Assembly (NCBI GenBank): GCA_044892525.1
Contig: CM097886.1
Span: forward strand, 91,884,001 to 91,948,000
Direction: 5' to 3'
From: Schmidtea polychroa
Lineage: Eukaryota
Length of the DNA stretch: 64,000 bases
Shown here: in pieces, positions 38,579-39,967 of the stretch
Layout of the letters: the number at the start of each line of letters is the position of its first letter
Position numbering within the stretch: the stretch's first letter is position 1
The notes under the pieces: model-generated
What the model was told of the DNA's origin: nothing
The model's input: the letters and a program-made list of their open reading frames with translations, nothing else
The model's database searches: none
Position numbers and translations under genes: made by a program

Positions 38579-39967
38579 ATGGATAAACGACAAAGAGAAG
38601 AGTTCAGAGAGATTGTCGAACAAGTCCGAAAATCTACAACGATCAGAATACACAAACATGTTATGTGCGGAATATGTGAAAAGTTGTTAAAGGAACCTCA
38701 CCAAACCCAATGTGGATGCAGATTATGTAAGGAATGCATCAGTGAAGCAATAAAGAATAGACCACAGTGGTGCCCGGTGTGTAAAGAGACATTAATATCG
38801 AGTTTAGAAGACACTAACGAGGATAAAGCCGCAGTGAAAGACATGTTAAACACCAATCTGGGATGTAAAAATAACCCATGTGAATGGAAAGGAGTGATAT
38901 GGAAAGTAGTGCAACATATGGGGGAATGTATGTACAGAATCAGCCAGTGTGAAAGGTGCCATAAAACCATTCGAGCAAGCGAAGAAAAAGAGCATCAAAG
39001 CCAGTGTGAAGATAGACTAGAAAGATGCAAACATTGTAGAGAACTAGATACGTGGAAAAATCTCACCAGCAAACATCACAATGTCCAAGAGGAAAAGGTA
39101 TGTGCAGAGTTCAGTGGGGAATTCCCGAACGGATGCGAGGAAGGGAGAATAATAAAAATAGCCCAACACCTAAAGGAATGTGAAAGGAAAAGAATGACAT
39201 GTGTACTCGGTAAATGGGGCTGTCAGAAACTACTACACCGAGGAGAGTTACCACATTATTTAGTAGAAAATGCTTCAACCCACGCAGAAATGTGGTCGAC
39301 TGCGTTACAAGAAAGTGAAGAGAAAGTAAAACAAATGGAGATAGAGATAACATCGTTGAAAGCGTTAGTCAAAGAACTACTAGAAGAAAGAGAAGCGTTC
39401 GAAGAAGCCCGAGCTAACATAAAGATGCAAATAAATCGTATAGAAATCAGTAATAATCAGGCCAAGGAGCTACATCGGAAAATACAGGAAATAAATCTAA
39501 ATGAGATAACCCCAACAGCACCTTATATATGGAAGATAACGGGAGTGAAAGAAAGAATACGGAAAGCCAAAACTGGGGAAGAGACAAGAATAACAAGTCC
39601 TGCATTCCATTCTTGGAAAAATGGGTACAAGATGAAAATGAGGATATATCCCAACGGAGATGGAGCCGGATTGAATACACATTTTTCGATATTTTTTCTA
39701 TTATGTAAAAGGGAATATGACGAAGTAATAGAATGGCCATTCCAGGCAAAAATCGATATCACAATGATGAATGACCAAAGCATCCACGAACAAAGCTTCA
39801 AAACAACGGGAACCCAGCTGTGTTACCGACGACCTACTGATGAGGAAGGAGCAGCATCAGGAGCCCCCACGTTCATCTTACAGCAGAAGGTGGAAGAGAT
39901 GACAAAAAACGACACAATATATATAAAAATGAGAGTGAGAAGGGAAGGGAAGGGTAGAACGGAGTAA
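38579..39967 (+). CDS. traf: Full-length intronless TRAF protein (RING, TRAF zinc fingers, coiled coil, MATH/TRAF-C)
   Basis: RING CGICEKLL...CGCRLCKEC...CPVC; fingers CKNNPCEWKG...HMGEC and CERC...HQSQC; MATH YIWKITG...SPAF...GYKMKMRIYPNGDG...THFSIFF...EWPF. Confidence 0.95.
   Translation: MDKRQREEFREIVEQVRKSTTIRIHKHVMCGICEKLLKEPHQTQCGCRLCKECISEAIKNRPQWCPVCKETLISSLEDTNEDKAAVKDMLNTNLGCKNNPCEWKGVIWKVVQHMGECMYRISQCERCHKTIRASEEKEHQSQCEDRLERCKHCRELDTWKNLTSKHHNVQEEKVCAEFSGEFPNGCEEGRIIKIAQHLKECERKRMTCVLGKWGCQKLLHRGELPHYLVENASTHAEMWSTALQESEEKVKQMEIEITSLKALVKELLEEREAFEEARANIKMQINRIEISNNQAKELHRKIQEINLNEITPTAPYIWKITGVKERIRKAKTGEETRITSPAFHSWKNGYKMKMRIYPNGDGAGLNTHFSIFFLLCKREYDEVIEWPFQAKIDITMMNDQSIHEQSFKTTGTQLCYRRPTDEEGAASGAPTFILQQKVEEMTKNDTIYIKMRVRREGKGRTE

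Follow-up and report, generated by a model that had tools for sequence, protein, structure and literature searches.

The window analysed here, a stretch of 64,000 nucleotides from Schmidtea polychroa, contains a TRAF open reading frame (ORF) of 462 amino acids that runs as a single open frame on the forward strand from the ATG at 38579 to the stop at 39967. The ORF lies within a Ty3/gypsy retroelement of 30,827 bp (16150-46976) with an internal part of 22,893 bp, whose features as given below are all on the forward strand. The 5′ LTR (16150-20117; 3968 bp, with TG...CA ends) is directly preceded by TATC and the 3′ LTR (43011-46976; 3966 bp) is directly followed by the same 4 bp, a target-site duplication that, together with the paired LTRs, bears out the statement of a first-pass annotation that the TRAF is located inside a retroelement. 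The two LTRs are separated by 6 substitutions and 2 gap columns, and because they differ at only 6 substitutions the insertion is very young. A primer-binding-site-like sequence (20125-20142), with a likeness to tRNA-Pro, follows the 5′ LTR and recurs behind the LTR of a second, related element; no tRNA gene was found within the 64-kb window. There is no purine-rich tract immediately 5′ of the 3′ LTR (43003-43010), where a polypurine tract would be expected. The LTR also encloses a 249-aa ORF without a known family, open in the 5′ LTR (18810-19559) and frame-shifted in the 3′ LTR (45670-46418), the counterpart of which in the second element (56124-56912) is 65% identical while most of the LTR has diverged.

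Between the primer site and gag the element carries an accessory ORF of 161 aa (20450-20935) with a C-terminal RING resembling those of cIAP2 and cIAP1 (E 3e-11), in which no BIR was found and of which the second element has an 83% identical copy (57789-58274). A 74-bp tandem repeat lies 5′ of gag, with about 4 copies here (21495-21800) and about 9 in the second element (58844-59553). The gag ORF (22791-27818) combines CCHC knuckles with a long extension that gives weak ubiquitin-like matches (E 0.04-0.05), and is followed in a different frame, in this copy, by an env ORF for a Monjiviricetes-type fusion glycoprotein (27745-30315; PF24664, E 5e-72). Pol (31284-34142) encodes protease, RT, RNase H and the N-terminal part of integrase before its frame stops within the integrase core; the C-terminal part of integrase is fused to ankyrin repeats in the next ORF (34130-36325). 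This Pfam-based order of protease, RT, RNase H and integrase is that of Ty3/gypsy elements. The TRAF ORF is flanked on its 5′ side by two ORFs (36111-38493), one of 620 aa with hydrophobic stretches and one of 119 aa that is coiled-coil-like, and on its 3′ side by three ORFs of 351, 251 and 213 aa (40161-42769), the first two coiled-coil-like; Pfam gave no family for any of these five. The reading frame is interrupted at three places, namely from gag to env, within the integrase core (near 34130-34142) and from the ankyrin ORF to the one that follows it; these breaks may represent sequencing errors in a gapped assembly with two N runs as an alternative to mutation. Searches for BIR, BCL2-like and dUTPase-like modules in the element gave neither a Pfam match nor an Atlas hit; for a BCL2-like domain in gag these searches were uninformative, as was a single-sequence model with a pLDDT of only 38.

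The second element occupies 53590-64000 on the forward strand, is 94% identical to the first at the nucleotide level in gag, and has an LTR only patchily similar to that of the first. It leaves the window inside gag and is therefore silent on whether the TRAF is common to both elements; tblastn found no second TRAF or TRAF remnant within the 64-kb window. It is seemingly inserted in an intron of an epimerase-like host gene, presumably of the NAD(P)H-hydrate epimerase type, with GT-AG introns of about 45, 46 and 87 nt. A second host gene, similar to protein O-glucosyltransferase 2/3 (8753-10336, reverse strand), consists of one uninterrupted frame of 508 codons. The gag and protease-like remains of a different LTR element lie at 2-1767 on the reverse strand in an intron-like stretch of a host gene that we assume to be glutamate-transporter-like. 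Host sequence in the window also includes a dispersed repeat of 378 bp in two 97% identical copies (8005-8382 and 52990-53366), and an element with inverted ends of about 190 bp located 2.6 kb apart (47313-47499 and 50139-50315).

The TRAF ORF encodes the full set of domains expected of the family. A RING at aa 30-68 (38666-38782) passes the curated Pfam cut-off (E 1.4e-4), and by Pfam and alignment has eight ligands, all of them Cys. Five TRAF-type zinc fingers at aa 96-235 (38864-39283) can be placed from the alignment with relatives and from an AlphaFold2 model; Pfam made no zf-TRAF call on them, but five C-C-H-C or C-C-H-H ligand sets align with the fingers of the relatives. A coiled coil (TRAF-N) at aa 232-304 (39272-39490) is recognizable from the model helix and from a heptad pattern in which the best a/d register is 71% hydrophobic. 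The MATH or TRAF-C domain at aa 316-453 (39524-39937) is closest to the TRAF1/2/3/5 type by Pfam and PDB matches (PF22486, E 2.4e-25; PF21355, E 7.9e-26). TRAF3, TRAF1 and TRAF2 domains are the best PDB sequence matches (E 1e-25 to 1e-27), and the N-terminus (aa 28-155, fingers included) aligns with a TRAF6 RING-finger construct in the PDB and also matches a TRAF5 construct. The AlphaFold2 model, built on a 16-sequence alignment (mean pLDDT 85.6, pTM 0.41), contains the RING, the five fingers, a 73-residue helix at 232-304 with pLDDT above 90, and a beta-sandwich; Foldseek searches with it returned TRAF3, TRAF1 and TRAF2 domains as the top PDB matches.

Thus, the earlier description of a full-length TRAF in a single frame holds, with 462 codons open and RING, fingers, coiled coil and MATH all detected, but the word intact needs qualification. 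All 8 RING zinc ligands are present, but only 18 of 20 finger ligands are, giving 26 of 28 overall. Neither Cys nor His is found at aa 182 in finger 4, a position occupied by Cys or His in 20 of 20 flatworm-side relatives, or at aa 227 in finger 5, where 20 of 21 such relatives have one of the two. The fourth RING ligand is Cys instead of His, as in 18 of 19 flatworm-side rows and none of 13 other rows, although in a larger alignment 5 rows outside the flatworm side share this feature. The RING retains an Ile, a Pro and a basic residue at what we take to be the positions used for E2 binding. The MATH domain retains its Arg, Tyr, Asp and Phe positions and has an altered serine patch, which together presumably line the receptor groove. 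Because of the two missing finger ligands and the altered serine patch the protein is possibly weakened, or a decoy.

On balance, the retained features incline us, by a modest measure, to a predicted active scaffold and ubiquitin ligase that favors survival of the cell expressing it. From what is known of the family the protein would trimerise, bind host receptors or adaptors through their TRAF-binding motifs, and act as a ubiquitin-ligase scaffold. In combination with the cIAP-type RING, ankyrin and ubiquitin-like modules of the element it would push stress and defence signalling of the TAK1/p38/JNK type toward cell survival. A rather unlikely alternative is that the element TRAF acts as a decoy or as an adaptor for degradation: by entering trimers of host TRAFs, or by taking up the sites on which these dock, it would block antiviral or death signalling and send no survival signal. 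The missing ligands of fingers 4 and 5, together with the altered receptor groove, speak for such a role; yet eight RING ligands and three complete fingers would be unneeded in a decoy, and the dominant-negative TRAFs known to us are those without a RING, which also counts against it. Planarian TRAFs are placed in RIG-I and TAK1/p38 defence pathways in the available portion of PMC7958881, and a viral TRAF, ISKNV ORF111L, acts on apoptosis, there promoting it (PMC3352826, in part). For host proteins, RNAi of planarian TRAFs raises cell death according to the accessible text of PMC7586133. The open frame of the element TRAF says little on present selection because the insertion is very young.

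The codon usage of the TRAF is that of the element. At four-fold degenerate third positions the TRAF has 48% A and 12% T, compared with 50% A and 13% T in gag, env and pol combined and with 33% A and 40% T in three host genes. By chi-square the four-fold sites of the TRAF are indistinguishable from those of the element (p 0.92) and differ from the host set (p 1.2e-7), a set that comprises only 808 codons from the three genes. A codon log-likelihood in which gag, env and pol were each left out of their own model gives the TRAF +0.15 bits per codon, within the range of gag, env and pol (+0.14 to +0.20) and unlike the host genes (-0.10 to -0.21). The A-rich codon usage that the TRAF was said to share with the element is thereby confirmed, and its full assimilation argues for long residence in the element. 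The companion argument, from the lack of introns, carries less weight. Host genes had been described as having short introns, and this is true of the epimerase-like gene but not of the O-glucosyltransferase-like gene, which is one frame. Passage through reverse transcription also tends to strip introns. Because of this tendency and of the intronless host gene nearby, intron absence is weak evidence, and we reject it as proof of retro-capture.

An exhaustive search of 1.84 billion representatives returned 5161 matches to the TRAF at E 0.001; among the 150 that were listed, the nearest proteins are 33-38% identical and the best full-length ones 33%. A homologue search with the single protein gave 2 matches, and a 5-sequence profile gave 5. 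The top-scoring named full-length proteins among the matches listed are planarian, namely Dendrocoelum TRAF-2 and TRAF-4 (T1DF65, T1DBK6) and Dugesia japonica TRAF2-like A; Dendrocoelum TRAF-5 stands lower in the list, one fish TRAF scores in the planarian range, and a coral TRAF scores lower. Taken by themselves, these matches point to a probable planarian host. For phylogenetic analysis 131 of 153 rows plus the query were kept, 22 long tandem-MATH proteins and one duplicate being dropped, and trees were computed from 52 chosen rows and from 37. In the maximum-likelihood trees the TRAF ORF forms a clade with P0001, P0015, P0018 and P0004 (support 100/99), and this clade falls within a larger group that includes all four named planarian TRAFs, with support of 93/91 in the 52-row tree and 82/84 in the 37-row tree. 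In the comparison with host TRAFs that the first-pass annotation had called for, the ORF groups with planarian TRAFs, but at this moderate support the place of its clade in the planarian family is no more than suggestive. By an index of amino acids with A-rich codons the TRAF ORF and its four clade relatives rank 1-5 of 37 and also of 131, and such common composition can pull them together in trees; on the N-terminal half alone the TRAF ORF ranks 8th of 36.

The relatives lend indirect support to the idea that the TRAF belongs to a multicopy element. P0001, P0015, P0018 and P0274 share 62-94% mutual identity in their first 105 aa, have C-termini that are deleted or unrelated, and show RING lesions; such a pattern would be expected if these gene models had been built, in another genome, on degenerating members of a multicopy element family. 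The four relatives in the clade may thus be borne by elements. The state of these sequences also bears on function, because the TRAF could be a once-useful accessory gene that is now decaying in this copy or subfamily and whose protein no longer works. In the TRAF ORF the ligand residue is changed at two sites that are invariant elsewhere, frames are broken in other ORFs of this copy, and three of the four closest relatives appear damaged. However, the 462 codons contain no stop or frame break, the predicted fold is confident, and the breaks elsewhere are possibly errors in the gapped assembly with its two N runs, so that we regard decay as quite unlikely and retain the working ligase as the preferred reading.

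A further protein, P0010 (UPI00060351E8), joins a segment of this type of element to a TRAF of another kind. Over its first 60 aa this gene model matches the integrase tail found in the clade of this element, at 51-66%; it continues into a full-length TRAF that belongs to another branch and is host-like in composition (rank 85 of 131). Because of that composition it is possibly an artefact in which a gene predictor joined a host gene to an element fragment; alternatively, it is a second captured TRAF.

The RT region provides a separate view of the element and its relatives. It is about 51-58% identical to 20 long proteins among 120 listed, most of them with the same env, and in 13 of the 20 close relatives examined by BLAST the env and pol matches lie in one chain. 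The 20 examined proteins, numbered within P0237-P0273, are gag-env-pol polyproteins with a Monjiviricetes-type env and come nearly all from contigs of 6-32 kb. Elements with env between gag and pol thus appear more widespread than the described planarian cases. The TRAF profile had no match in the 120 listed RT-bearing polyproteins, the 20 close relatives included, and no named Burro sequence was among them; the search covered proteins of 1639-4680 aa, a window that would miss the 4,873-aa ORF1 of Burro1.

Taken together, codon usage, sequence divergence and phylogenetic placement indicate that the TRAF is likely an old capture from the host flatworm TRAF family by an ancestor of the element. 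The ancestor would have taken up the gene from its flatworm host's own TRAF family long ago, and the captured TRAF would thereafter have been copied along with the element as a standing accessory gene. RING, fingers, coiled coil and MATH fold have been retained across about 65% sequence divergence. The first-pass annotation had proposed an old retro-captured host mRNA; codon assimilation, the 33-38% identity and the planarian placement speak for an old capture, but intron absence is weak evidence and no poly(A) remnant or flanking repeat at the ORF marks a capture.

The same lack of a poly(A) tail or flanking repeat counts against the idea that the element harbors, by chance, a single recent retrocopy of some host TRAF transcript or an intronless gene of the host. 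A recent passenger would agree with the presence of only one TRAF in the window, with the occurrence of intronless host genes there, and with P0010, in which a host-like TRAF stands beside an integrase tail in a gene model. It would not explain why the codon usage of the TRAF is that of the element and unlike that of the host, why its spacers carry motifs common to the neighboring accessory ORFs, or why two large protein sets, which perhaps do not include the host proteome, hold no match above 38% over long alignments, and we consider it extremely improbable. It is also very unlikely that the TRAF originated in a non-flatworm lineage and arrived together with the element or by way of a DNA virus. 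Env-bearing relatives of the element are widespread, megalocytiviruses and giant viruses encode TRAFs, and the deep nodes of the 37-row tree are weak; but viral TRAF models are only 11-29% identical to the ORF, the best full-length matches listed are planarian, and the RING with Cys for His is of the flatworm-side kind, although 5 outside rows in the larger alignment have it as well. Even added together, a recent passenger and an outside origin remain quite improbable beside capture from the flatworm family.

The TRAF is located at a distance of 22 kb from the 5′ LTR, and ribosomes scanning along the genomic RNA could not reach it. The ORF is preceded by an AT-rich spacer of 85 nt (38494-38578) with an AATAAA at 38526, four TGTA motifs and an acceptor-like TTATAG that ends 1 nt before the ATG. 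The spacer behind the stop (39968-40160) contains TGTA and GTATATA motifs and an AATAAA at 40020, and is a candidate mRNA 3′ end. These signals recur along the accessory row. Of 7 accessory ORFs, 5 start 1-2 nt after an acceptor-like HAG; for the ATGs of the element the figure is 94 of 682 (a binomial p of 8e-4, the pattern having been defined after inspection of the sequence), and the acceptor position is kept before the RING ORF of the second element. AATAAA is present in 6 of 6 spacers of the 3′ ORF row, a result equalled in 30 of 2000 shuffles; the same spacers have 19 TGTA (8.8 expected) and 8 GTATATA (0.8 expected), which none of 2000 shuffles reached. AATAAA is not depleted inside the ORFs of the element (31 found, 26 expected). 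A role of GTATATA as a TATA box for the TRAF is unlikely because the copy nearest the gene lies only about 10 nt before the ATG.

Although the LTRs of the two elements have otherwise diverged, both keep a CCAAT box, a TATA-like run and an AG|GTAAG donor site near their 5′ end, at 16440-16620 and 53890-54070. The sequence in front of the AG|GTAAG is repeated about 45 nt farther on, which would allow an intron of 45 nt; the repeated words differ between the two elements. The kilobase between env and the protease has 42% T within an element of 40% A, starts with GTAAGA and ends with TTTACAG, both on codon boundaries, and thus forms a candidate GT-AG intron of 1055 nt (30262-31316) whose removal by splicing would connect env with pol. 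Retention of such an intron by an LTR element of animals would have its counterpart in the Ogre elements of plants.

The simplest reading of these signals is that the element makes subgenomic mRNAs via splicing and separate poly(A) sites. The TRAF would be expressed as its own short mRNA, produced by splicing to the acceptor just before its ATG, either from the donor in the LTR leader or to a spliced leader, and this mRNA would end at the AATAAA behind the stop. The spacers between the accessory ORFs measure 39-241 nt, lengths that would also fit flatworm operons resolved by spliced-leader trans-splicing; in Macrostomum operons the intergenic distance peaks at about 100 bp according to the portion of PMC8629364 consulted.

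A complete TRAF in a young giant retroelement raises the prospect that many planarian TRAF sequences are element cargo. The reported expansion comprises 121 MATH domains in the available text of PMC6109357, and 282 contigs that are mostly redundant, partial or without RING and fingers in that of PMC7586133; its meaning is called unresolved in the part of PMC8807557 seen. The complete architecture, the place of the TRAF among accessory ORFs that would be processed separately, and the clade of element-like relatives make inflation of the TRAF family via element copies, as the first-pass annotation had suggested, a credible hypothesis. A bolder and rather less likely proposal is that a complete TRAF ligase is a permanent member of an operon-like series of accessory genes in Burro-like elements, each of them released as a separate mRNA by splicing (in cis or with a spliced leader) and by a poly(A) site of its own, and that copies of this TRAF, perhaps with a second captured lineage, would make up a large part of the 100-280 planarian TRAF/MATH transcripts. 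If true, the reported lineage-specific TRAF expansion and some of the RNAi and infection-response results would belong to retroelements steering stem-cell survival. A link between Burro and the TRAF expansion was not found in the literature searched, to which Grohme 2018 and the supplements of the cited papers may add: section 7 of PMC6431247, the one paper in that literature to mention both Burro and TRAF, treats the TRAF cargo of Burro without linking it to the expansion, and Burro and words beginning transpos- or retro- are absent from the text of PMC7586133 as available.

The closest known system is Burro/GYPSM1 of Schmidtea mediterranea, an element of more than 30 kb with env between gag and pol. 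Its cargo includes MATH_TRAF_C, BIR, BCL2-like, ankyrin and ubiquitin-like modules, for which interference with apoptosis and ubiquitination has been proposed (section 7 of PMC6431247). Burro is reported to be de-repressed when piwi is knocked down (PMC8532177). Thus, TRAF cargo of Burro elements is already known at the domain level. The element described here shares with Burro a length above 30 kb with multi-kb LTRs, a mononegavirus-related env in the same place, ankyrin repeats, a TRAF/MATH module and an IAP-related module. Burro also has a ubiquitin/SUMO-like domain in ORF1, to which the weak matches in the gag extension may correspond. It differs in several respects: the MATH_TRAF_C of Burro is a domain inside a 4,873-aa polyprotein, whereas here it belongs to a separate ORF 3′ of pol with RING and five fingers; gag, env and pol of Burro occupy one polyprotein frame, whereas those of the present copy stand in different frames, and a putative intron separates env from the protease; and for the IAP-type RING no accompanying BIR was found. 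Pfam and Atlas searches gave no dUTPase or BCL2-like match. We file the element as Burro-like and not as one of Burro1-4. A Burro-like element of Dugesia (Girardia) tigrina also has MATH_TRAF_C in a separate accessory ORF (PMC6431247, 'not shown'), but upstream of the polyprotein, unlike the TRAF downstream of pol here, and the review makes no mention of RING or zinc fingers in it. What is new here is the complete ligase-type architecture of a TRAF that stands 3′ of pol among successive accessory ORFs marked by acceptor- and poly(A)-like signals, and its well-supported clade with four proteins of element-like composition, three of them with aberrant C-termini.

Planarian host TRAFs (Dendrocoelum TRAF-2, -4 and -5, Dugesia japonica TRAF2-like A, and Smed-TRAF-2A/B) resemble the element TRAF in domain order, in length (about 450-490 aa) and in the Cys-for-His RING. 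They are only about 27-32% identical to it, and the element TRAF stands apart in a long-stem clade, with A-rich composition and two finger ligands missing. The Ogre elements are likewise giant members of Ty3/gypsy, with additional ORFs and an intron that is functional, but they belong to a plant lineage and have no TRAF or env reported in the portion of PMC12786077 consulted. Viral TRAFs, including ISKNV ORF111L, those of other megalocytiviruses and TRAF-like proteins of giant viruses in BFVD, are similarly parasite-borne and have RING, coiled coil and MATH. They belong to DNA viruses, and ORF111L, at 296 aa, promotes caspase-8 apoptosis (PMC3352826, in part); since viral TRAFs are so little identical to the ORF, they would represent independent captures. 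The element described here would be a case of a retroelement that transports an entire signalling ligase, as is otherwise known of large DNA viruses.
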